Shown: positions 7,326 through 23,656 of the stretch, one piece after another
Layout of the letters: every line of letters starts with the position of its first letter
Position numbering within the stretch: the first letter of the stretch is position 1
Origin: Trichlorobacter lovleyi SZ
Lineage (GTDB): Bacteria; Desulfobacterota; Desulfuromonadia; Geobacterales; Pseudopelobacteraceae
Assembly (NCBI RefSeq): GCF_000020385.1
Contig: NC_010814.1
Coordinates: forward strand, 1,140,001 to 1,172,000
Direction: 5' to 3'
DNA length: 32,000 nucleotides
Notes under the pieces: model-generated
Told to the model about the DNA's origin: nothing
Seen by the model: only the letters and a program-made list of their open reading frames with translations
Database searches by the model: none
Position numbers and translations under genes: made by a program

Positions 7326-7939
7326 TCTTCCAGCTGCTGCATGGTTGTAGCCAGTTCGGTCGTAAATTCTCTGGTGTCACCGCTGAAACAGCGTGGTTCA
7401 GCAACCGCTGCCTTACCGCAGAACGGCACCAGCACAAAGCTGCCCCGCGGCAGGCTTCTGCCTAGGTTGCGCATGAAGACCGGCACCACCGGCACTGCAG
7501 GAAAGCGCTTTGCCAGGTGGGCCACCCCCGGCTTGATCTGACCCAACTCCTCCGGCGCTCCCCGCGTCCCCTCGGGAAAGATGATCACAATCTCACCTTG
7601 CTCCAGCGCTGCTGCAGGTCCGGCCAGCGGATCAGCATGGAAGCTGCTCCGTTTTCGTTCCAGGGGAATAATCCCCAGAAAAGTACTGGAAAGCCATGAG
7701 GTACTCGGCGTGCTGCAGAAGTAGTCGGCTGCTGCCACCGGCCGCAGCAGCGCCAGCGCTTTCAGCGGCATCAGGGTAATCAGGTAGAGGATATCCAGGT
7801 GGCTGTTGTGGTTGGCAACAATAATGGCCGGGCCACTGACCGGCAGATGCTCGCGTCCCTTGATGCAGCGTCCCAGCAGCAGCGACACCAGCGGCCGCAC
7901 ACAACAGGCCAGAAAGATGATCCTGATCAGACGTTTCAT
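7301..7939 (-). CDS. PlsC-family lysophospholipid (1-acyl-sn-glycerol-3-phosphate-type) acyltransferase
   Basis: HX4D motif (IIVANHNSHLD) and the FPEGTRG block. ATG 7939..7937 overlaps the upstream stop as ATGA; the track's start at 7945 is a GTG two codons upstream. The 3' end overlaps the convergent EBP gene by 25 nt. Confidence 0.88.
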   Translation of the reverse strand: MKRLIRIIFLACCVRPLVSLLLGRCIKGREHLPVSGPAIIVANHNSHLDILYLITLMPLKALALLRPVAAADYFCSTPSTSWLSSTFLGIIPLERKRSSFHADPLAGPAAALEQGEIVIIFPEGTRGAPEELGQIKPGVAHLAKRFPAVPVVPVFMRNLGRSLPRGSFVLVPFCGKAAVAEPRCFSGDTREFTTELATTMQQLEDQVDSVSS

Positions 7940-8577
7940 TGCCACGGAACCGGAACCGGTGCAGACGGTTCACCAACAGGTGCCGGCGGTGGTTGATGCA
8001 GCTTTGCTTTGGGCAGCCGGGTATAGGGGATAAACTTCAGCACCTTCTTTTTGGGCAGTTTGCGTCCTTCCTGCTTTGCAGCCACTATCTCCTCTACATG
8101 GGCGGTTAAGACCGCTTCCATATCCTTGTCCAGCGGTTGCGGTTCCTTGCCGTTCTTCAGCCGCTCCAGCTTTTCAAAGACCTTTTTGGCATAGATCTCG
8201 CTCTTTTCCGGTGTCTGGCTGTTGTAACAGCCGACCGCCCGCCAGTTGTAGCCGTACTTGCTGATGCAGGCGGCCAGAATCCAGGCCCCGGTTTTGGTGT
8301 TGTAGCAGGCATCCCCCAGATGCTTCCAACGTTCCGGCCCCAGGGTACTCTTCCAGATGGTGTTGATCTGCATCAGGCCCACATCATAACTGCCATTGGT
8401 GTTCTTGCCCACAGCATCAGGTTTGTTGCCTGACTCCACCCCGGCAATGGAGCGCAGCACCAGCGGGTTGATACCGTACAGTTGGCCGGCCTCTTCAAAA
8501 CAGTAGGCATGGGCGTTGTTGCCCTGGGCCATAACGGCAATGGTTAGTACAAAGATAAACGTGCATTTGAAGGTCAT
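7936..8577 (-). CDS. Secreted lytic transglycosylase (SLT domain, IagB/VirB1-like small type) with a Pro/Lys-rich C-terminal tail
   Basis: Signal peptide MTFKCTFIFVLTIAVMAQGNNAHA, catalytic block SIAGVESGNKPDAVGKNTNGSYDVGLMQIN, then AWILAACISKYGYNWRAVGCYN. Start chosen at ATG 8577. The 39 aa upstream in the track ORF are Arg/Leu-rich read-through of an intergenic repeat. Confidence 0.85.
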   Translation of the reverse strand: MTFKCTFIFVLTIAVMAQGNNAHAYCFEEAGQLYGINPLVLRSIAGVESGNKPDAVGKNTNGSYDVGLMQINTIWKSTLGPERWKHLGDACYNTKTGAWILAACISKYGYNWRAVGCYNSQTPEKSEIYAKKVFEKLERLKNGKEPQPLDKDMEAVLTAHVEEIVAAKQEGRKLPKKKVLKFIPYTRLPKAKLHQPPPAPVGEPSAPVPVPWQ

Positions 8578-16203: not shown

Positions 16204-19200
16204 TTACGCTATCGCCTCCGCTAGCTTCTTCAGCCCCTTCAGATCCAGCTTGCCGCTACCCAGTAGCGGTATCGCTTCAGCTGCCACCAACAACGACGGT
16301 TTCCAAAGGTTGGGCAGTTCTGCCTGTTCAATGGCCTGTTTAACCTTGGCCTCATCAAGTTGGGTCTGATCAAAGACCACGGCGATCCGCTCCCCCTTTT
16401 TCTCATCCGGCACTGCCGTGACAGCCAGCAGCAGGTCAGTGCTGGCCAGGGCTGCCAGCAGCCGTTCCTCCACGGCACCGTGGGGGATCATCTCGCCGCC
16501 GATCTTGCTGAAGCGGGCCAGACGATCGGTGATCACCACAAAGCCCTGCTCATTGATGTAGCCGATATCGCCGGTGTTGTACCAGCCATTGCGGATCACC
16601 TTGGCGGTCTCGTCCGGTTTGCCCAGGTAGCCGGTCATCAGGTTGGGGCCAGATACCTCGATCAGGCCCGGCTGGCCATCAGCCAGCAGTGTGCCGCTGT
16701 CCGGGTCGCTGATCCGTACCGCCACGCCAGGGATCGGCCTGCCCACGCTGCCTGACAGTTGCCCTTTCTGGCGGATGCCGCCGATCTCCACATCCGGGAT
16801 GTTGAGGGAGATAACCGGCGAGAGTTCAGTGGCGCCGTAGCCTTCCAGCGGGCGCAGCTTGAACTTCTCTTCAAAGGCATTGGCCAGTTCGGTCTTGAGC
16901 TTTTCAGCACCGGTGATCACCAGCCGCAGGGATCTGAAATCCTCTGGAGATGCCTTGCGCAGATAGGCTGACAGGAAAGTGGGGGTGGCAATCAGGATGG
17001 TGGCCTTTTCATTGCGCACCAGTTTGACCACCTGGGTCGCCTCCAGCGGGTTGCTGTGGCAGGCCGATGAGAAACCGGACAAGAGCGGCAGCCAGAGCGT
17101 GCCGGTAAAGCCCAGGGAGTGGAACAACGGCAGCACCGCCGCCACCCGGTCGTTCTGGTCCGGCTGGAACACGGCCCGCAGCGCTTCAATATTGGAGAGG
17201 ATGTTGTGGTGCGACAGCATGACCCCTTTGGGGGTTCCGGTGCTGCCGGAGGAAAAGATGATGGTGGCGGTGTCATCCGGGGCCGGGTTGTCGGCCACCA
17301 GGGTTGCCAGCGGTGCCAGTCTGGCAGCAGCCAGCGCCTTCAGTTTTTCCAGTGATCCCAGCCCTTGCATAACCTCTTCCAGCAGGATGATCCGTTCCGG
17401 CATCGGCAGGTCAGGCAGTTTCTCCAAGACCTTTTTAGAGGTGACCACGCAGCTGATCTCTGCCTGTTCCAGGGATGAGGCAAAGGCATCCCGTGAAGCG
17501 GTGTAGTTCAGGTTAACCGGCACCTTAGCCAGCAGGGTCAGGGCGATGTTGGCGGTAAAGCCGGCCACGGAAGGGGGTAGCAGTATCCCCACCTGTTTGC
17601 CGGACAGCAGCGGCTGTAGCCGGTTTTTGACCAGCAGGCTGCCGGTCAGCAACTGGCCGTAGGTCAGGCTTTTCCCGGTGGTGTCGTTGACCGCCGGGTG
17701 AGACCAGTTGCTGCGGGCAGTGCGGACAAAGGCATCAGCCAACGGCAGGCGCTGGTCTTTGCGGGCCTCAAAGTAGCGCACTGACAGCTCCATTACGGCA
17801 GTGCGGGCCTGGGCTGCCTGATCAGCAGCCAGCGGCGTGCCGAACAGGATATGCATGGGATAACGGTTCAGGTAGATATGTCGGTTGCGGGCATAGCTGA
17901 AGATGTTGCCCCAGGCGCCGCCGATGTAGGCCGGAATGATCGGTACACCGGTTGCCTGGGCGATCTTGGCAAAGCCGGGCCGGAAGGCGTTCAGGCTGCC
18001 GTGGCGGGTGATCTCCCCCTCGGCAAAGATGCAGACCAGATAGCCTTCATCCAGCACCTGTTTGGTGGCGCGCAGGAACTCCTTGAACCCGGCAATGCCA
18101 TCTTTGGCAGAGACTGGAATTACCCCCATCAGTTTGAAGAGTGGGTTCAGGGCCGGGGTCTCGTAGATGCTGCGGTCCATCACAAAGCGGATGCGGCGGG
18201 TCTGGGTGGCCACCAGCAGCAGGGCATCAATCCAGGAGACATGGTTGGCCACCAGCAGGGCCGGGCCATCCAGCGGTACATTGTCCCTGCCATCCACCCG
18301 GATCTTGTACAGCAGGTGCATCACCACCAGGGCCACAAAGCGCAGCAGGAAATCCGGCAGGTAACGGATGGTGACCAGGGTCAGCAGCAGGGTCATGACC
18401 CCCATCACACTGAACCCCTGGGCAGCGGTCATCTGCAGCGGCCCGCTGAACAGAAAGGTCAGGGCAGAAGCGATCAGGATGCCGACCCAGTTGATAAAGC
18501 TGGAAGCGGCCAGTACCTCACCCCTGATCTCGGCCTCGGCCCGCATCTGAATAAAGGTCTGCAGCGGCAGGGAGAACAGACCGGCGCTGATGCCGAACAA
18601 CAGGATGATGGCCAGTACGGTGGGCAGATGGGCAGGCGCATTGTGCAGCAGTACCGGCGCAATGGTCAGGCCGATGGCCCCCAGCGGCACGATGCCGAAC
18701 TCCACATCCTTGCCGGACAGCTTGGCTGCCAGCAATGAGCCGCCGGCAATGCCGAAGGCAGAAGCCAGAAAGAGGTAGCCGCTTTTGGCTTCATCAAGCC
18801 CCAGTTGCTGGATGCCGTAGCCGATCAGGTTAAGCTGGGTAAAGGCCCCCACCAGCATGAACCAGGCCAGGCCGGTAATGGCCAGCATCAGCCAGTGGTC
18901 ATGCTTGATATGCTGCAGGGTACGCAGGATTTCGGCCGGGAAGAGACGGATCGGGCGATTAGGCGCGACAGCCGCAACCTTTGGCAGGCGCAGGGCAGAG
19001 ATCAGGCCGATGATGGCAACCGCCAGGCAGAAGCAGGCAGCCAGCCAGAAACGGCCGCCCACTGCCTGGGTCAGGGCCGAGGCCAGGGTGGTGCCGAAGA
19101 TGATTGCCAGAAAGGTGAAGGATTCGATCAGGCCATTGGCCCGGGATAGCTCATCGCGGGGGGCCAGTTCAGGGATGATGCCATATTTGGCCGGGGCAAA

Positions 19201-19548
19201 AAAGGCGCTGTGGGTGGCCATCAAAAACAGTACCCCGTACAACCCCCATTCAAGCCTCAGGGCAAAGGTTAGTACAGCCAGGGCGGTAACGATCACCTCC
19301 AGCAGCTTGACCGCTACGCTGACCCGTGCCTTGCTGAAACGGTCGGACAGGCAGCCGGCCGGAGCTGAAAAGAGCAGAAACGGTAGCACAAAGGCCACGC
19401 CGGCACAGGCGGTGATGATGCCGGCCCTGTTGGCCCCCTGATGGTGGATCAGGAAGAAGATGATCAGCAGCTTCAGGATGTTGTCATTCATCGCCCCCAG
19501 AAACTGGGTCAGGTTCAGGGCCGGCAGGCCGGCAGGCAGTTTGGACAT
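16204..19548 (-). CDS. aas: Triple-domain LplT(MFS)-PlsC acyltransferase-acyl-ACP synthetase fusion (lysophospholipid transporter / 2-acyl-GPE acyltransferase / Aas type)
   Basis: 1114 aa. The N-terminal ~400 aa form a 12-TM MFS domain. The central part has the HX4D acyltransferase block (LVANHVSWIDALLL ... FAEGEITRHG). The C-terminal part is an AMP-binding domain (IIFSSGSTGTPKGVMLSHHN ... GWYNTGDIG ... GKLDLKGLKKLA). Confidence 0.9.
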   Translation of the reverse strand: MSKLPAGLPALNLTQFLGAMNDNILKLLIIFFLIHHQGANRAGIITACAGVAFVLPFLLFSAPAGCLSDRFSKARVSVAVKLLEVIVTALAVLTFALRLEWGLYGVLFLMATHSAFFAPAKYGIIPELAPRDELSRANGLIESFTFLAIIFGTTLASALTQAVGGRFWLAACFCLAVAIIGLISALRLPKVAAVAPNRPIRLFPAEILRTLQHIKHDHWLMLAITGLAWFMLVGAFTQLNLIGYGIQQLGLDEAKSGYLFLASAFGIAGGSLLAAKLSGKDVEFGIVPLGAIGLTIAPVLLHNAPAHLPTVLAIILLFGISAGLFSLPLQTFIQMRAEAEIRGEVLAASSFINWVGILIASALTFLFSGPLQMTAAQGFSVMGVMTLLLTLVTIRYLPDFLLRFVALVVMHLLYKIRVDGRDNVPLDGPALLVANHVSWIDALLLVATQTRRIRFVMDRSIYETPALNPLFKLMGVIPVSAKDGIAGFKEFLRATKQVLDEGYLVCIFAEGEITRHGSLNAFRPGFAKIAQATGVPIIPAYIGGAWGNIFSYARNRHIYLNRYPMHILFGTPLAADQAAQARTAVMELSVRYFEARKDQRLPLADAFVRTARSNWSHPAVNDTTGKSLTYGQLLTGSLLVKNRLQPLLSGKQVGILLPPSVAGFTANIALTLLAKVPVNLNYTASRDAFASSLEQAEISCVVTSKKVLEKLPDLPMPERIILLEEVMQGLGSLEKLKALAAARLAPLATLVADNPAPDDTATIIFSSGSTGTPKGVMLSHHNILSNIEALRAVFQPDQNDRVAAVLPLFHSLGFTGTLWLPLLSGFSSACHSNPLEATQVVKLVRNEKATILIATPTFLSAYLRKASPEDFRSLRLVITGAEKLKTELANAFEEKFKLRPLEGYGATELSPVISLNIPDVEIGGIRQKGQLSGSVGRPIPGVAVRISDPDSGTLLADGQPGLIEVSGPNLMTGYLGKPDETAKVIRNGWYNTGDIGYINEQGFVVITDRLARFSKIGGEMIPHGAVEERLLAALASTDLLLAVTAVPDEKKGERIAVVFDQTQLDEAKVKQAIEQAELPNLWKPSLLVAAEAIPLLGSGKLDLKGLKKLAEAIA

Positions 19549-19610
19549 GGTCGTTCCCCGTGGTGAAGTTGAAACAATCTATATACCAGATTAGTTGCAA
19601 ATAGCGAATG

Positions 19611-19781
19611 CTAGCCCCGCATCAGGGGGCCCTGGGCCAGCCCCTTCAACGCCCCGGAGGCGATTCTCTTTACAGTGCGCCTGCTGTGGTGCCTTTTAAT
19701 GGTCTCGGAGAGGATGGCGATGGTCATCAGCAGGATCAGTGGGGTTGTTGCTACCAGTACTCGTAAGGTCAGTGTTTGCAT
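19611..19781 (-). CDS. Small single-TM protein (56 aa), leader gene upstream of aas
   Basis: MQTLTLRVLVATTPLILLMTIAILSETIKRHHSRRTVKRIASGALKGLAQGPLMRG. SD AAGGAGG lies 5 nt before ATG 19781. I reject the track's upstream start at 19850 because it would lie upstream of the sigma-54 promoter. It shares its layout (N-terminal TM, then a basic T-I-E/K-H/R-H/R-R segment) and its SD context with the 5451-5651 gene. Confidence 0.6.
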   Translation of the reverse strand: MQTLTLRVLVATTPLILLMTIAILSETIKRHHSRRTVKRIASGALKGLAQGPLMRG

Positions 19782-19815
19782 GGCGTCCTCCTTAGCTGTT
19801 CTTGCTGTTGTGATT

Positions 19816-19832
19816 AGCAGGGAGGGTGCCAA
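19816..19832 (-). promoter_or_regulatory. Sigma-54 (-24/-12) promoter
   Basis: The minus strand reads TTGGCAC-CCTCC-CTGCT, with TGGCAC at 19831..19826 and CTGCT at 19820..19816. The GG and GC dinucleotides have the correct spacing. The site lies about 35 nt upstream of ATG 19781. Confidence 0.6.
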
Positions 19833-19967
19833 GTCGTGCATCTGTTGCAACTGGCTTTATTTGTTGTTCTATTTTCATGCGTTGCTGAAATGTTGTGATG
19901 GTAGTTGTGGTACGCGCTGTACATAATATGTCGTTGGCTTGTTCAATCTATGTCGTGTATGGCGTGC

Positions 19968-19996
19968 TTGCCAATGTTCTGCAGTGGCGCTATGCT
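19968..19996 (+). promoter_or_regulatory. Sigma-70-like promoter for the 20004 gene; possible leaderless transcript
   Basis: TTGCCA (19968-19973), a 17-nt spacer, TATGCT (19991-19996), then 7 nt to ATG 20004, which has no SD. Confidence 0.3.
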
Positions 19997-20003
19997 ATGC
20001 GGC

Positions 20004-20462
20004 ATGGAAACCAAGGGACCGGCAGCATTCAAATACAAGCAGGAAGGCGGCAGCAACGTGCTGGTATGGGTGGTGTTGATCACCAGCCTGATTGTCTCGT
20101 TCATTGCCACTGCCAACCTTGGTCCCTGGTGGCTGCTGGGGTTGCTGCTGCCGCTGGGGATTGCCATCTACCTGATTCGCGAAGGGATGCGTAAAACCCT
20201 GATCATCGCCCCGCGCTACCTGATTGTGGGGGATGGGATCATCTACTACAGTACCGTTGCCAAGGCCCAGTTGGATCGCCGGAAACAGGTCCTGACCCTG
20301 GTTTCAGAACGGGGCAAGCGGCTGGCCATCGAGGCGGAAAAGTTTCCCACCAACGCCCGCAAGGATTTCAAGATCAAGGCCAACAAGACCGCCAAATTTG
20401 ACAAGGTTTGCGAAAAGGTCCTGGCACGGCTTTCAGGAGTAACCCCTGATATCATCGGCTGA
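20004..20462 (+). CDS. Two-TM membrane protein with a ~90-aa cytoplasmic beta-rich (possibly bacterial PH-like) C-terminal domain
   Basis: METKGPAAFKYKQEGGSNVLVWVVLITSLIVSFIATANLGPWWLLGLLLPLGIAIYLIREG..., then RYLIVGDGIIYYSTVAKAQLDRRKQVLTLVSERGKRLAIEAEKF. The start is uncertain: 20004 is preferred, 19992 is possible, and the track's 19905 start gives a Cys/Met-rich extension over the divergent promoter region. Confidence 0.65.
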   Translation: METKGPAAFKYKQEGGSNVLVWVVLITSLIVSFIATANLGPWWLLGLLLPLGIAIYLIREGMRKTLIIAPRYLIVGDGIIYYSTVAKAQLDRRKQVLTLVSERGKRLAIEAEKFPTNARKDFKIKANKTAKFDKVCEKVLARLSGVTPDIIG

Positions 20463-20496
20463 CAATAGCCTTGTCATCCGGCAGTTTTCCCGGCAT

Positions 20497-22320
20497 GTGC
20501 ACTTGCTGTATGTGCCCACCCTCTGCTGCAACCTTTCCTGCCGTTATTGTTATCTTGGCAGCCAGACCGATCCAACCACCCTGAAGCTGGATGCAGGCAG
20601 GGCAGTGGCTACCTTGCAGCAGGCACTGCAGAGGCTTCTGGATACCGGTGTTCTGCCGTTTAATGTCTCACTGCATGGTGGTGAGGTGACCACCCTGCCT
20701 GTAAAGGTACTGGATCAGCTGTTCAGCACCATCAATCGCCACTATCTGGATCACTTTGATCAACTGAACGCCCTGGGGTATCGCAAGTCAGCCCCCCATC
20801 TCAAGACTAACCTGTTTAACTTCCATAAGCTGTATGACCTGTTTGACCAGCACCGGGTCTCCATCAGCGCCAGCATTGATCTGCCGTTGTCCCTGCATGC
20901 CAAATACCGCACTGATCACCGGGGGCGATCCTGGTTGAACCGCACCATTGAAAACCTGCGCCTGCTGGCCCGTTATCCCCACAACAAAAAGATCTCTGCT
21001 ACGCTCTACCATGAGCATCTGCAGGATATCCCGGCCTTGATCGATGCTATCTGGACCATTCACCGTGAGCTGGGCTTTGACATGAATAATTTCAATATCA
21101 TGTTCGGGTTCGGGTCAGAGCTGAACTGCCGGAAATTCAGTGGGCAGCCTGAACTTGGGCTACAGCAGGCCTCTGAAGCTGAACAGCTGGCCCTGTACCA
21201 TGCCCTGCAGGATGCCTTTAGTGGTACGGAACTTGAGGAAGGGTTGCGGCGGAACTGGTTTGATGAGTTCAAGCCCAGCTACTGCACCAATGCCTTTAAC
21301 TGTGGTGAGCGGTTTTATCTGCTGCAGTCCGATGGTACGGTCTGGTCCTGTGTGCGGGGGCAGGGGGTGGAGCAACTGCAGTACGGCAACATCTTTACTG
21401 ACCGGGTGCAGGATATCCTGGCTGAAGGCAGCCGCCGGGTCCGGCTGCTGCACCAGCAACAGGGGCTTGATCCTGACTGCCGGGCCTGCGAGTATCTGCA
21501 GATCTGCCATACCGGCTGCCCGGCAGTCAAGCTGCAGAACCGCTCCGGCAAATCCTACACCTGTGCCCTGCAAAAGGCGATCTATCGGGATAATCCTGCC
21601 TCGTACCCGCCGCTCGGGCCGCTGGAGCAAGCGGCAGCAGCGCGGGAGTATCTGCTGGGGATGCACCCGGCCCTGCTGCAGGATGCGTTGACGCAGGAGC
21701 AGCCGAAGAACCCGGCGGTGTTGATCCCGGTAGAGCTGTACGAAGAATGGAACAGCCTGCAGGCCTTGATTGCGGCTGATCCGTTGCTGCTGCAGCTGTA
21801 CAGCCCGGATGCTATTGTGCTGGAGCTGAATGGCGAGCTGCTGCCACTGCAATCCCAGATTCTTGCTCCTCAGCGCAGTCTCTACAGTGTTGGGGCGGAT
21901 GATCGCCTGGTACTGCATGTCCGGCGCTCTCTGTTTGAGGCCAACTGCACGGAGCTGATCCGCAATACCCTGTATATCCAGCTCTTGCGGGATACCACGG
22001 TGGTCTATGGTGATGAACAGCGCAGCAAGCAGGAACATCTGATCACCCACCAGATCTTTCACAACCTGCTGCAGCCTGATCTGCTGCTGGGGGACGGGTG
22101 GCTGACCGCAGACCTGGCAGGGTTGCTGCAGTTAACCAGTCGGTATTTCATCAAAAATGTGCTTAATAATTTGTTCGTGACCACCGGCCAGCTTCGGGAG
22201 TATCATTATCAGAAGCAGAAAAACAACGCCTTCTATCATATTCAGGCCATCAATCTGCCGTTTCAAAACTTTGAATTTTACTGGGACAGCGAGACAGAAT
22301 ATGTCATCAAAAGATCTTGA
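20497..22320 (+). CDS. Radical SAM / SPASM-domain enzyme with an additional ~215-aa C-terminal region of unknown function
   Basis: CX3CX2C sits at residues 11-18 (CNLSCRYC, nt 20527-20550), followed by HGGEVT. The SPASM cysteines are CTNAFNCGERFYLLQSDGTVWSC ... CRACEYLQICHTGC (nt 21478-21519, CX2CX5CX3C) ... YTC. It starts at GTG 20497 with no clear SD, 34 nt after the previous stop. Confidence 0.88.
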   Translation: MHLLYVPTLCCNLSCRYCYLGSQTDPTTLKLDAGRAVATLQQALQRLLDTGVLPFNVSLHGGEVTTLPVKVLDQLFSTINRHYLDHFDQLNALGYRKSAPHLKTNLFNFHKLYDLFDQHRVSISASIDLPLSLHAKYRTDHRGRSWLNRTIENLRLLARYPHNKKISATLYHEHLQDIPALIDAIWTIHRELGFDMNNFNIMFGFGSELNCRKFSGQPELGLQQASEAEQLALYHALQDAFSGTELEEGLRRNWFDEFKPSYCTNAFNCGERFYLLQSDGTVWSCVRGQGVEQLQYGNIFTDRVQDILAEGSRRVRLLHQQQGLDPDCRACEYLQICHTGCPAVKLQNRSGKSYTCALQKAIYRDNPASYPPLGPLEQAAAAREYLLGMHPALLQDALTQEQPKNPAVLIPVELYEEWNSLQALIAADPLLLQLYSPDAIVLELNGELLPLQSQILAPQRSLYSVGADDRLVLHVRRSLFEANCTELIRNTLYIQLLRDTTVVYGDEQRSKQEHLITHQIFHNLLQPDLLLGDGWLTADLAGLLQLTSRYFIKNVLNNLFVTTGQLREYHYQKQKNNAFYHIQAINLPFQNFEFYWDSETEYVIKRS

Positions 22321-22753
22321 AAAAATTGCGGCAAATGTGGAGCGTTTCATGAATCTGGTGGGGATGCCGGATGATAAGAAACGGGTGCAGATAGAGGAGG
22401 AACTGGTGGGGCGGATGGCTGCCAGCGCGGATAAGAAACCATCGCTGGTCTATGCCCAGGATCATCTCTATCTCTATAACGGCAAAACCCTGGTCAAGGA
22501 CTATCCGGGCCTTGGGGCAAGCGGTGACCGGGTGCTGCAGTGCGATGCAAAGAAGATCTCAATCCTGGATCGTCAGGCCTTCCTGAATAACAAGACCATC
22601 CTGATTACCGGTGCCGTGGCAGCCACAGCCCTGGCAGGCGCGGCCCTGGCCGATGCAGAACAGCGTAAACGCCAGAGCAGCGGTGAAGTCTCCTACAGTA
22701 ACAACAATAATAACAATAACAACAACAATAATAATAACAACAATAACGGTTGA
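22301..22753 (+). CDS. Membrane-anchored protein (150 aa) ending in an Asn16-Gly tail
   Basis: MSSKDLEKIAANVERFMNLVG... forms a soluble N-domain of about 105 aa. It is followed by a TM helix ILITGAVAATALAGAALA, then DAEQRKRQSSGEVSYS-N16-G*. ATG 22301 overlaps the rSAM gene by 20 nt. The track's 22271 start lies deeper inside the rSAM gene. Confidence 0.65.
   Translation: MSSKDLEKIAANVERFMNLVGMPDDKKRVQIEEELVGRMAASADKKPSLVYAQDHLYLYNGKTLVKDYPGLGASGDRVLQCDAKKISILDRQAFLNNKTILITGAVAATALAGAALADAEQRKRQSSGEVSYSNNNNNNNNNNNNNNNNG
22700..22747 (+). repeat. 48-nt cryptic AAC/AAT codon repeat encoding 16 consecutive Asn
   Basis: aac aac aat aat aac aat aac aac aac aat aat aat aac aac aat aac, then ggt tga. 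This is a very AT-rich island inside GC-rich sequence, and the codon mix is irregular (not a perfect SSR). Confidence 0.95.
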
Positions 22754-23656
22754 TTAAGTTGTTGCAGGTCCTTCCAGATTGGTCAGTAGATCCAGCAGTT
22801 CTTTTTCATCTATCCCGCAGCGTTCAATGATCAGTTCACGCAGCGCGGTTGGCAGCGGCGCGCAGAGCGTCAGCCGTGTCTCAGGGGTGGGATGCTGCAG
22901 TCTGGTGCGGAAGGAGTGCAGGGCAATGCCCGGCAAGGTGGCCAGCGGTTGTGCATCATAGCGCTTGTCTCCCAGCACTGGATGGCCGATTGCGGAGAGG
23001 TGGCGCCGGATCTGGTGGGTCCGGCCGGTAACCGGTTCAACCAGAAGAAACGAGCAGCTCTCTCCAACAGACAGGCTGCGGTAGCGGCTGATGGATTCCT
23101 TGCCATCCAGCGGCTGGCTGATCTCGCCGATGCCTTCCAACATCCCTTCCACTACGGTCAGGTAGATTTTGTCCAGCCCTTCTTCCTTGACCTGCCTGCC
23201 CAGGATACCGGCGTTGGATGAACTGGTAGCCAGCAGCACCACGCCGGAGGTGCCGCGATCAAGCCGGTTGACCGGATAGGCCCGTACCGGGTAGTTGGCC
23301 TTCTTTTCCAGCCAGGCGGAGGCGATGTCGGCCAGATTCTCATCCACCTCGGCAGCGGGGTGCATGGCCAGTCCGGCCGGTTTGTTGATGGCCAGCAGGC
23401 GATCATCCTGCCAAAGTAAGTCAATCGGTGGTAGCGGTCTGTTCAGGAGTTCCAGCACTTGGCCGCTTTCCTTCAGGCTGATGATAGCGCCAGCCGAAAG
23501 CAGGGTGTCAGGTGATGATTTGGTGCCGTTCAGGGTGCAGGCGCCGGACTTGATCAGTTTGCGGCAGTAGGCAGGCAAGGCGGTGGGCAGGAGGCGTTGC
23601 AGCCAGCTTTCCAGCCGGCGGCAGTGGTCATCAGCAGTAATGGTGTAGGTGAGCAT
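22754..23656 (-). CDS. RluA-family pseudouridine synthase (S4-like N-terminal domain plus catalytic domain)
   Basis: LLAINKPAGLAMHP, catalytic NRLDRGTSGVVLLA, and GRTHQIRRHLSAIGHPVLGDKRY. Its stop codon directly abuts the stop of the convergent Asn-tail gene. Confidence 0.9.
   Translation of the reverse strand: MLTYTITADDHCRRLESWLQRLLPTALPAYCRKLIKSGACTLNGTKSSPDTLLSAGAIISLKESGQVLELLNRPLPPIDLLWQDDRLLAINKPAGLAMHPAAEVDENLADIASAWLEKKANYPVRAYPVNRLDRGTSGVVLLATSSSNAGILGRQVKEEGLDKIYLTVVEGMLEGIGEISQPLDGKESISRYRSLSVGESCSFLLVEPVTGRTHQIRRHLSAIGHPVLGDKRYDAQPLATLPGIALHSFRTRLQHPTPETRLTLCAPLPTALRELIIERCGIDEKELLDLLTNLEGPATT

Follow-up and report, generated by a model that had tools for sequence, protein, structure and literature searches.

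A radical SAM/SPASM enzyme family with its own C-terminal domain is encoded beside proteins that end in asparagine runs, in bacteria and in phages

Radical S-adenosylmethionine (radical SAM) enzymes carrying a SPASM domain are a main source of new peptide chemistry, and a locus in Trichlorobacter (Geobacter) lovleyi raises the question of what one of them acts on. Within the window (the whole 32,000-nucleotide stretch of T. lovleyi SZ DNA that was analysed), three co-directional genes on the + strand encode a small protein with two transmembrane (2-TM) segments (gene 1), a radical SAM/SPASM enzyme (gene 2) and a protein that ends in sixteen consecutive asparagines followed by a glycine (gene 3; Table 1). 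An initial annotation, made from the DNA alone, had suggested that the enzyme modifies this neighbour; its gene coordinates, the 34-nt gap between genes 1 and 2 and the 20-nt overlap between genes 2 and 3 are all correct, and its central idea has held up in each computational test that it named as able to refute it, with the pairing of enzyme and Asn run recurring in three gene arrangements and the two being lost together. On this comparative evidence it is highly probable that the tail and the enzyme are functionally coupled, the tail is most likely the enzyme's target, and we place at about 0.6 the probability that the cassette is a self-contained protein-maturation system in which the enzyme acts on the C-terminal Asn run of its neighbour.

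By its conserved residues and profile matches, gene 2 belongs to the radical SAM superfamily and to the SPASM subfamily. The CX3CX2C and SPASM clusters of the 607-residue protein are as the initial annotation had described them, and the SPASM motif is complete (C263 together with C269-x10-G280-x4-C285, C328-x2-C331-x5-C337-x3-C341 and C356). None of these cysteines varies in an alignment of 20 diverse homologues, with C11, C15 and C18 of the radical SAM motif also shared with phage homologues, and the eight in the SPASM region appear sufficient to fully ligate two auxiliary [4Fe-4S] clusters, as in anSME. The TIGR04085 SPASM domain profile is passed at 45.4 bits against a cut-off of 27, while the Pfam SPASM profile (PF13186) falls just under its threshold (21.1 versus 21.5); Pfam Radical_SAM (PF04055) is sub-threshold on the window protein (17.6 versus 29.5 bits) and present in homologues. 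The protein is 99% identical to a T. lovleyi 'SPASM domain-containing protein' (P0001).

When run against the NCBIfam profiles, the enzyme falls in no characterised subfamily and reaches no equivalog cut-off. The best score is for anSME (76.2 bits against 349.45), with DynA (75 against 450), YhhB (65 against 445) and QhpD (36 against 453) also well short, and membership of anSME, DynA, QhpD or a similar characterised subfamily is ruled out by these cut-offs. Among the maturase families that depend on a recognition element (RRE) for peptides made by the ribosome and modified after translation (RiPPs), such as PqqE, MftC, the sactisynthases, QhpD, CbpB and HxsB, all scores are at or below 75 bits against cut-offs of 300-650. 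Indeed, the radical SAM cluster motif stands at the extreme N-terminus and thus leaves no space for an N-terminal RRE domain, and alignments to the RRE-bearing families CbpB, HxsB and QhpD begin only at profile positions 69-103. Nor is a separate PqqD-like RRE apparent, there being no Pfam match to one in the window proteins and no conserved extra gene beside the enzyme. Scans of the three cassette proteins against Pfam, NCBIfam, PADLOC and PHROGs gave only generic radical SAM/SPASM matches and phrog_1802, a 'radical SAM domain-containing protein' family that aligns over residues 6-598 of gene 2 and positions 49-553 of a 556-position profile (E = 4.9e-44).

In addition to this core, the enzyme carries a C-terminal domain. 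The initial annotation had recognised an extra region beyond the SPASM module, and the region is real, although its length is about 250 residues after the last SPASM cysteine and not the 215 or so originally given. Residues 365-597 rank among the most conserved parts of the protein across phyla and include two near-invariant motifs, RNTLxxQxLRDTxVVYGDEQRxKQEH and LREYHYxKQKxNAFYHIQAxNLPFQNxEF. AlphaFold models the isolated domain as a helical linker followed by a beta-sandwich (pLDDT 77.5, pTM 0.72). A profile of the domain matches nothing among PDB sequences or in Pfam, and a Foldseek search of the model against the PDB returned no E-value below 1e-3 and best TM-scores of no more than 0.42, the best matches being generic beta-sandwiches (arrestin-like VDUP1, Spo0M). 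An identity as an RRE, a peptidase or a known catalytic fold is accordingly unsupported by the PDB profile and Foldseek searches. In a HMMER profile scan of 1.84 billion representative proteins the domain was found in 101 clusters, all of them radical SAM enzymes of about 580-616 residues or fragments of such enzymes, which indicates that it is confined to this enzyme family.

The enzyme does not travel alone. A scan of one genome per GTDB species yielded 124 relatives, of which 80 loci were taken for comparison, with the start codons of orthologues assigned by alignment to the window proteins. The 80 loci cover about 10 phyla and include Desulfuromonadota, Betaproteobacteria (many), Myxococcota, Leptospirales, Bacteroidota, Deinococcota, Cyanobacteriota and relatives, Methylococcales and Acidobacteriota; carriers among them are Archangium, Rapidithrix, a Deinococcus metagenome-assembled genome, Sericytochromatia and Solibacteraceae. 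A gene 1 homologue lies immediately upstream of the enzyme gene in 77 of the 80 loci and a gene 3 homologue immediately downstream in 79, so that the synteny on which the proposed partnership depends is general, and the enzyme itself retains roughly 60% identity across phyla. Clustering of the open reading frames (ORFs) within 6 kb on either side of the 80 loci revealed no fourth conserved gene, and the outer neighbours are conserved among close relatives only. The absence of classical RiPP parts noted at the window thus extends to the whole set, with no conserved peptidase, exporter or RRE gene. From the stop codon of the enzyme gene to the start of the tail gene the median distance is 8 nt; the two genes overlap in 27 of 78 pairs and are separated by no more than 30 nt in 71 of 78. 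The close spacing read as translational coupling is therefore a general feature of the cassette, whereas the 20-nt overlap itself is specific to the lineage. Insertions between gene 1 and the enzyme gene occur in two Desulfuromonadales, as a 327-residue ORF in locus L016 (1854-2837) and as two ORFs in L011 (3828-5946). The latter is also the only genome locus without a tail gene, the enzyme being followed there by a 95-residue protein with a hydrophobic N-terminus (7899-8186).

As conserved as the gene order is the tail itself. The gene 3 product ends in ...AEQRKRQSSGEVSYS-N16-G, and both its RKR cluster and its SYS-N16-G terminus are exactly as first described; no other ORF within the window contains an Asn run of four or more. 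Every assessable orthologue closes with an Asn run followed by glycine and a stop codon, the run comprising 6-27 residues (median 14), and in about 85% of bacterial orthologues the residue that precedes the run is serine. The tract is thus present in essentially every assessable orthologue of the 150-residue protein, as the proposed role requires. Across the loci the run is encoded by 662 AAC and 428 AAT codons, which are interspersed in nearly every locus, including genomes of at least 65% GC, and the lysine codons AAA and AAG are almost absent from the tracts. This mixture of synonymous codons with few lysine codons shows selection on the peptide rather than on a DNA repeat; the tail is maintained as a peptide, and its coding DNA is probably kept non-repetitive.

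These observations bear directly on the idea that the tail has nothing to do with the enzyme and is a trinucleotide repeat prone to slippage, a product of faulty assembly, a spacer without fixed structure or an A-rich RNA element such as an Hfq/Crc (ARN)n site. The (AAY)16 tract on the mRNA would form a textbook Hfq/Crc-type (ARN)n site, and the tract gives a weak Rfam match to CrcZ (22701-22772; 26 bits against a gathering score of 95) that stems from the A-rich, ARN-like repeat and does not represent a real small RNA. Run length also differs among species, and four assemblies (L035, L046, L057 and P0125) break, are gapped or are frameshifted inside the tract. Against this stand the near-universal mixing of AAC and AAT, the near absence of AAA and AAG, and the conservation across phyla of the reading frame, the preceding serine and the terminal Gly-stop, as well as the recurrence of the run beside distant enzyme homologues on unrelated proteins and the joint loss of tail and enzyme, both described below. 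Codon mixing and frame conservation rule out an origin as a DNA microsatellite or an RNA element, the comparative data largely refute a functionally unrelated tail, and we regard that account as extremely unlikely.

Profiles built on the C-terminal domain also retrieve divergent full-length enzymes whose gene contexts are unlike that of the window. Enzymes of phage type are 35-38% identical to gene 2 and keep the core motifs of the C-terminal domain; one homologue sits in a Mu-like phage module, and a tblastn search located another in Campylobacter phage CAM-P21 (L092, MW462221.2, 3235-6743). The order of genes in CAM-P21 is baseplate genes, tail fibre, a 211-residue helical protein, the radical SAM enzyme, an ORF matching DUF1353 and the tail sheath, and a DUF1353 gene is also annotated beside the enzyme homologue of Campylobacter coli. 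The CAM-P21 enzyme matches phrog_1802 with an E-value of 6e-142 (an example member is WKW83149.1, a hypothetical protein of CAM-P21), and the tail fibre (phrog_1162) ends in ...SYAPSGSTNNNNY, its last residues being ...SGSTNNNNY. The phage-type loci (L088, L089, L090, L092, L093-L098 and L102), which are few and partly redundant, share the order tail fibre, helical protein of 140-211 residues, enzyme. Their partner proteins are listed in Table 1; GGGSGPNNNF is among the endings in viral and metagenomic loci. In the eight non-redundant phage-type loci, NNN occurs in the last 16 residues of 7 of the 76 ORFs, and all seven are encoded just upstream of the pair formed by the helical protein and the enzyme. 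Counting the near-duplicates L092-L095 separately, an Asn-run-ending neighbour is found in 11 of 12 phage-type loci, the exception being L085-L087. The enzyme of these loci (P0296) is the most divergent homologue (E = 7.6e-8 to the C-domain profile). Its low-GC gene cluster also encodes a putative Hint (intein-like) protein, recognised by eye, a 2OG-Fe(II) oxygenase, another radical SAM enzyme and a protein of 259 residues; none of the neighbours seen in L085-L087 has an Asn tail, and this enzyme may have a different substrate.

A third arrangement was found in contigs of 54-68% GC (L108, 730-2827; L109; L110, 1634-4468), in which a TM protein of 236-270 residues, unrelated to gene 1, is followed by a RiPP-like precursor of 68-93 residues and then by the enzyme. 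Common to these precursors is the motif PFSESxxFxxGW, and their C-termini read N11-G or N15-G. In the metagenome scan, all 44 loci with enough flanking sequence, this third arrangement included, had an adjacent gene whose product ends in an Asn run. No homology was detected by hhalign between the partner or accessory proteins of the three arrangements (probabilities of about 0.1-1%), and common to all three are only the enzyme and a C-terminal Asn run. Furthermore, nature provides a deletion. In the remnant loci L103-L105 a gene 1 homologue (E = 8e-38) directly abuts a gene for a 123-residue gene 3 homologue, and these loci contain neither the radical SAM gene nor the Asn tail; the basic motif of the gene 1 homologue is degraded there. 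This joint loss of enzyme and tail has been seen in one lineage.

The phage branch also informs two accounts of what the cassette as a whole might be for. By the logic of PQQ, mycofactocin or the pearlins, the tail could be a multi-copy core for a small molecule, with its asparagines converted by the radical SAM enzyme and then released by housekeeping peptidases as an Asn-derived metabolite or cofactor, and the 100-residue domain serving as a scaffold. A homopolymer of variable length would suit many copies of a single product, the cassette is self-contained and occurs in varied chromosomal contexts, and the short precursor form of 68-93 residues is known; however, no peptidase, ligase or exporter co-occurs with it, the invariant terminal glycine is left unaccounted for, and the phage partners are structural fibres of 170-1000 residues with just 2-6 asparagines, for which a metabolite factory is implausible. 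We consider this role very unlikely. Very unlikely, in turn, is the proposal that a maturase of phage tail fibres gave rise to a module for anti-phage defence or abortive infection, with the 2-TM protein as its membrane effector and the tailed protein serving as decoy or sensor. The existence of a phage branch in tail-fibre modules, the compact three-gene form with a small TM protein, the patchy phylogeny and the non-conserved surroundings are all compatible with such a module, but PADLOC-DB v2 gave only a trivial match to viperin (E = 0.007), over the cluster-binding motif, and no defence-system match for any of the three proteins. The neighbours are ordinary housekeeping genes and not defence islands, and identity of about 60% across phyla is unlike that of fast-evolving defence genes. 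The canonical cassette was also not found in IMG/VR, and a search of plasmids produced the Campylobacter phage-type homologue only and no canonical cassette.

A more substantial alternative is that the run is a C-terminal docking tag, or 'follower', which is read by the extra domain while the chemistry takes place on a nearby residue, either the Ser or Thr before the run (by an anSME-like oxidation or an ether link) or Cys81 of the carrier. In agreement with this possibility, about 85% of bacterial orthologues have serine immediately before the run, and Ser, Thr or Gly is common at this position in phage tails; anSME, which oxidises Ser or Cys, is both the closest solved structure and the best NCBIfam match; and both auxiliary clusters appear fully ligated, as they are in anSME. 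In most of the gene 3 family Trp80 and Cys81 are nearly invariant, and a variable run length suits a tag better than a defined core. Nevertheless, a run of 9-27 residues is more than a tag needs, the residue before it varies (Cys, Phe, Pro, Gly and Tyr are also found), the sulfatase motif C/S-x-P-x-R does not occur in the 150-residue sequence, and neither the partners in phages nor the short precursors have the context of Cys81, the run being all that they share. On balance a docking tag is unlikely, if less so than the accounts above.

Several points weigh against modification of the run itself and temper the probability given to it. Co-occurrence, which is what the comparison of genomes provides, does not separate a modified tail from a docking tag, and the deletion evidence comes from a single lineage. 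Known SPASM cross-links are Cys thioethers and aromatic C-C bonds, and a homopolymer of asparagine offers no obvious partner for either, so that the chemistry would be without precedent. Run length, which extends from 2-6 asparagines in phages to 27 in bacteria, ill fits one product, and what follows the run differs: in bacteria it is Gly, in phages it is Tyr, Phe, Ser, His or Gly or a longer extension. Finally, the most invariant motif of the C-terminal domain, NAFYHIQ, is modelled at low confidence when the domain is folded alone.

If the enzyme does act on the run, the C-terminal domain, with its invariant Asn, Gln, His, Tyr and Arg residues, would replace an RRE and capture the Asn tail. 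The tail would then enter the radical SAM site, where, to judge from the enzyme class, the 5'-deoxyadenosyl radical would take a hydrogen atom from the C-alpha or C-beta of an asparagine or from a residue beside the run. In what is the least certain step, the two Cys-ligated auxiliary clusters would, as in anSME, remove an electron to give a net oxidation, with a cross-link or a dehydrogenation as the outcome, possibly repeated along the run. In cassettes of the Trichlorobacter type the product would stay on the carrier domain of about 100 residues and probably work with the 2-TM protein on the cytoplasmic side of the membrane, a location that the strict co-occurrence with this protein suggests. 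A net oxidation is favoured by the full ligation of the auxiliary clusters and by the distant resemblance to anSME. The candidates, each given low confidence, are dehydrogenation, cross-linking and an oxidative processing of the run or of what adjoins it; epimerisation, as in proteusin biosynthesis, is possible. In view of the phages, a structural change to the end of a protein is a better fit than a small-molecule factory.

Among characterised systems, one of the closest to the cassette is anSME/AtsB (PDB 4K36-4K39; TIGR03942), which likewise combines a radical SAM core with a SPASM domain and two fully Cys-ligated auxiliary clusters, acts on a full-length protein rather than on a short leader-core peptide and uses no RRE. 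anSME is also the only PDB sequence match to gene 2, in a match that spans residues 8-94 only. In contrast, the NCBIfam score is 76 bits against 349, anSME ends at its SPASM domain whereas about 235 further conserved residues follow in gene 2, and the partner lacks both a sulfatase fold (no Pfam or NCBIfam match) and a C/S-x-P-x-R motif, bearing out the earlier view that it does not resemble the sulfatase-type substrates of radical SAM/SPASM enzymes. The maturases that install cross-links or cyclophanes (DynA, DarE, YhhB, AmcB, GrrM/OscB, XyeB and FxsB) share the radical SAM/SPASM core and an adjacent substrate gene, and their substrates are often repetitive, but the profile matches to this group are weak (36-75 bits, far under cut-offs of 310-650). 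Moreover, these enzymes join aromatic rings to neighbouring side chains, while the Asn tail has no aromatic residue, and the window cassette is without their leader/RRE logic, peptidase or exporter. MftC and PqqE target the extreme C-terminal residues of an adjacent gene product (MftA and PqqA), as proposed here; they need, however, a PqqD-type RRE chaperone, which the window cassette lacks, and their substrates, unlike gene 3 with its Asn run, end in Val-Tyr or carry Glu...Tyr. The 25 of 47 NCBIfam matches listed include neither family. A classical RiPP cluster differs in that the partner in the window is a 150-residue protein with a folded domain of 99 residues, and no peptidase or transporter is conserved across the 80 loci.

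In the proteusins (polytheonamide and aeronamide), D-Asn residues are methylated iteratively on the side-chain nitrogen (PMC9060474). With their N-terminal leader or carrier of about 100 residues, their many iteratively modified asparagines and a radical SAM enzyme that acts repeatedly on one peptide, they come nearest, as a functional analogy and through the PoyD-type epimerase, to a radical SAM enzyme working again and again on a peptide rich in Asn. The differences are that gene 3 has no NHLP or Nif11 leader family in NCBIfam or Pfam, that gene 2 is of SPASM type, that the cassette contains no methyltransferase and that the putative core is a pure homopolymer. No epimerase family appears among the same 25 of 47 listed NCBIfam matches, PoyD-type models not having been checked by name. 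Members of phrog_1802 belong to the same family as gene 2 and have its architecture and C-domain motifs, although the phage versions pair with tail fibres bearing short Asn runs and a helical protein and not with a 2-TM protein and a long-run protein.

The carrier domain of gene 3 is modelled by AlphaFold as two helices followed by a five-stranded sheet (residues 1-99) and has no fold relative in the PDB, the best Foldseek E-value being 0.33. For gene 3, and with 75-78 orthologues per flanking protein, no Pfam, NCBIfam or PDB relative was found besides poly-Asn artefacts. Profiles that contain the run yield spurious 'homologues', and in the PDB the gene 3 profile matches dozens of maltose-binding protein (MBP) fusion constructs through their engineered Asn10 linker and Chaetomium EED through a poly-Asn insertion. 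The single TM helix that the initial annotation had assigned to this protein is marginal on closer analysis. The Kyte-Doolittle peak of the segment is 1.9 (orthologue median 1.54, with 37 of 78 at 1.6 or above), the segment is missing from orthologues L044, L061, L062 and L064, and model confidence over it is low (pLDDT below 50). In addition, were the segment to span the membrane, a cytoplasmic enzyme would have either the tail or the basic cluster on the opposite side, and 'membrane-anchored' is thus unproven; a membrane anchor in the gene 3 protein is doubtful.

In public annotation gene 3 begins at a Met within the reading frame (22349) and has 134 residues, but the ATG at 22301 is the better start because the first 16 residues are conserved in orthologues, whose alignments begin at residue 1. 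In the protein database, 86 clusters of the gene 3 family were found compared with at least 749 hits for the enzyme, a number limited by a ceiling of 8,000 scored candidates; gene 3 alone as the query returned 4 relatives, whereas an alignment as the query returned the 86 clusters. The partner proteins are annotated there as 'hypothetical'. The partner is thus systematically under-annotated: in assemblies its gene often has a wrong start, is overlooked or is interrupted, which may explain why the pairing has gone unnoticed.

Gene 1 encodes the hydrophobic hairpin that had been predicted for it and belongs to no recognised family: no match was found in Pfam, NCBIfam, PADLOC, PHROGs or among PDB sequences. 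The N-terminus of the family carries a conserved F-K-Y-x-H, and its basic domain of 85 residues contains the motif FPTNARK..KI..NK..KF; Y11, A118 and K123 are invariant in the alignment. By the positive-inside rule, this basic domain and both ends of the protein would be cytoplasmic.

Upstream of gene 1, the divergent intergenic region probably contains the promoter of the operon. The sigma-70-like matches at 19968-19996 (+) are weak, and shuffled sequence contains them just as often; Rfam gave no element in 19549..20003, and a scan for riboswitches and terminators gave nothing above chance level. On the far side of this region, a minus-strand gene (16204-19548) encodes a fusion of 1114 residues with MFS transporter, acyltransferase and AMP-binding domains, and downstream a convergent gene (22754-23656, minus strand) encodes an RluA-type pseudouridine synthase; both are housekeeping neighbours unrelated to the cassette. 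The stop codons of the RluA-type gene and gene 3 abut, so that a terminator would not fit between these two convergent genes.

Table 1. Features of the cassette, its surroundings and related loci. Coordinates are positions in the window except for the remnant locus.
Feature	Coordinates	Strand	Basis or remark
Gene 1, 152-aa accessory membrane protein	20004..20462	+	hydropathy, synteny
Gene 1 2-TM hairpin, ~residues 13-62	20040-20189	+	Kyte-Doolittle 19-residue window, up to 2.55
Gene 2, radical SAM/SPASM enzyme, 607 aa, GTG start	20497..22320	+	phrog_1802 match, P0001 identity
Radical SAM cluster motif C11-x3-C15-x2-C18	20527..20550	+	invariant in alignment
SPASM region, eight invariant Cys (C263, C269, C285, C328, C331, C337, C341, C356)	21283..21564	+	
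C-terminal domain of gene 2, residues 365-597 (~235 aa), helical linker then beta-sandwich	21589..22287	+	alignments, AlphaFold
Gene 3, 150-aa poly-Asn-tailed protein, putative substrate	22301..22753	+	20-nt overlap with gene 2
Gene 3 folded N-terminal domain, residues 1-99	22301..22597	+	AlphaFold pLDDT 80-90
Gene 3 Gly/Ala-rich hydrophobic segment (~98-120) then RKR (122-124)	22592..22669	+	hydropathy
Gene 3 tail, Ser133-(Asn)16-Gly150	22697..22750	+	mixed AAC/AAT codons; Asn-Gly 22700-22750; stop 22751-22753
Divergent intergenic region	19549..20003	none	455 nt between minus-strand 1114-aa gene (start 19548) and gene 1
Remnant locus L103	4534-5372		also L104, L105; proteins P0194, P0195
1000-aa fibre-like protein			ending HGNNNS; IMG/VR and metagenome loci
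Small partner proteins			endings FSNNNNNNLAGNV, RNNNGNNNNSCSGGW, SSNNNNNNRG, HSGNNNSKCSG; upstream of helical protein and enzyme
173-aa tail-fibre-like protein			ending GGGGGGSGPNNNF; upstream of helical protein and enzyme
Collagen-like fibre			ending GYNNNNNGNNH; upstream of helical protein and enzyme

Public annotation of the enzyme does not go beyond 'radical SAM' or 'SPASM domain-containing', phrog_1802 carries a generic name with no function or substrate, and no curated Pfam, NCBIfam or PADLOC family covers the C-terminal domain, either partner or the pairing of the enzyme with an Asn tail. In agreement with the initial annotation, which knew of no described radical SAM system with a poly-Asn partner, a full-text literature search found neither a link between radical SAM enzymes and poly-Asn nor radical SAM maturation of tail fibres, with the limit that most papers in subscription journals lay outside the search and an earlier description is possible; the papers found on Campylobacter radical SAM genes concern unrelated ones. 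In its outline the system would be a radical SAM/SPASM maturase with an adjacent substrate, and what is new in it would be the class of substrate and the recognition domain.

To our knowledge, the characterised radical SAM/SPASM enzymes all act on Cys, aromatic, Ser/Thr or similar side chains in defined motifs. An Asn homopolymer as the target, with a family-restricted domain in place of an RRE, would therefore be a new substrate class and probably a new reaction. Tentatively, and at less than even odds, the family may represent a new class of post-translational modification, in which a dedicated radical SAM/SPASM family with a beta-sandwich recognition domain repeatedly modifies or cross-links homo-Asn C-terminal tails, on bacterial carrier proteins and RiPP-like precursors as well as at the tips of phage tail fibres. 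Such a reaction might yield a new form of poly-Asn, either covalently stapled or with inverted stereochemistry. The system is experimentally tractable, as it comprises at most three genes and trypsin frees a single C-terminal reporter peptide. For the phages, the branch in tail modules suggests enzymatic finishing of tail-fibre tips, such that some fibres would be completed by an enzyme at their receptor-binding end, and this would bear on host range and on phage engineering.

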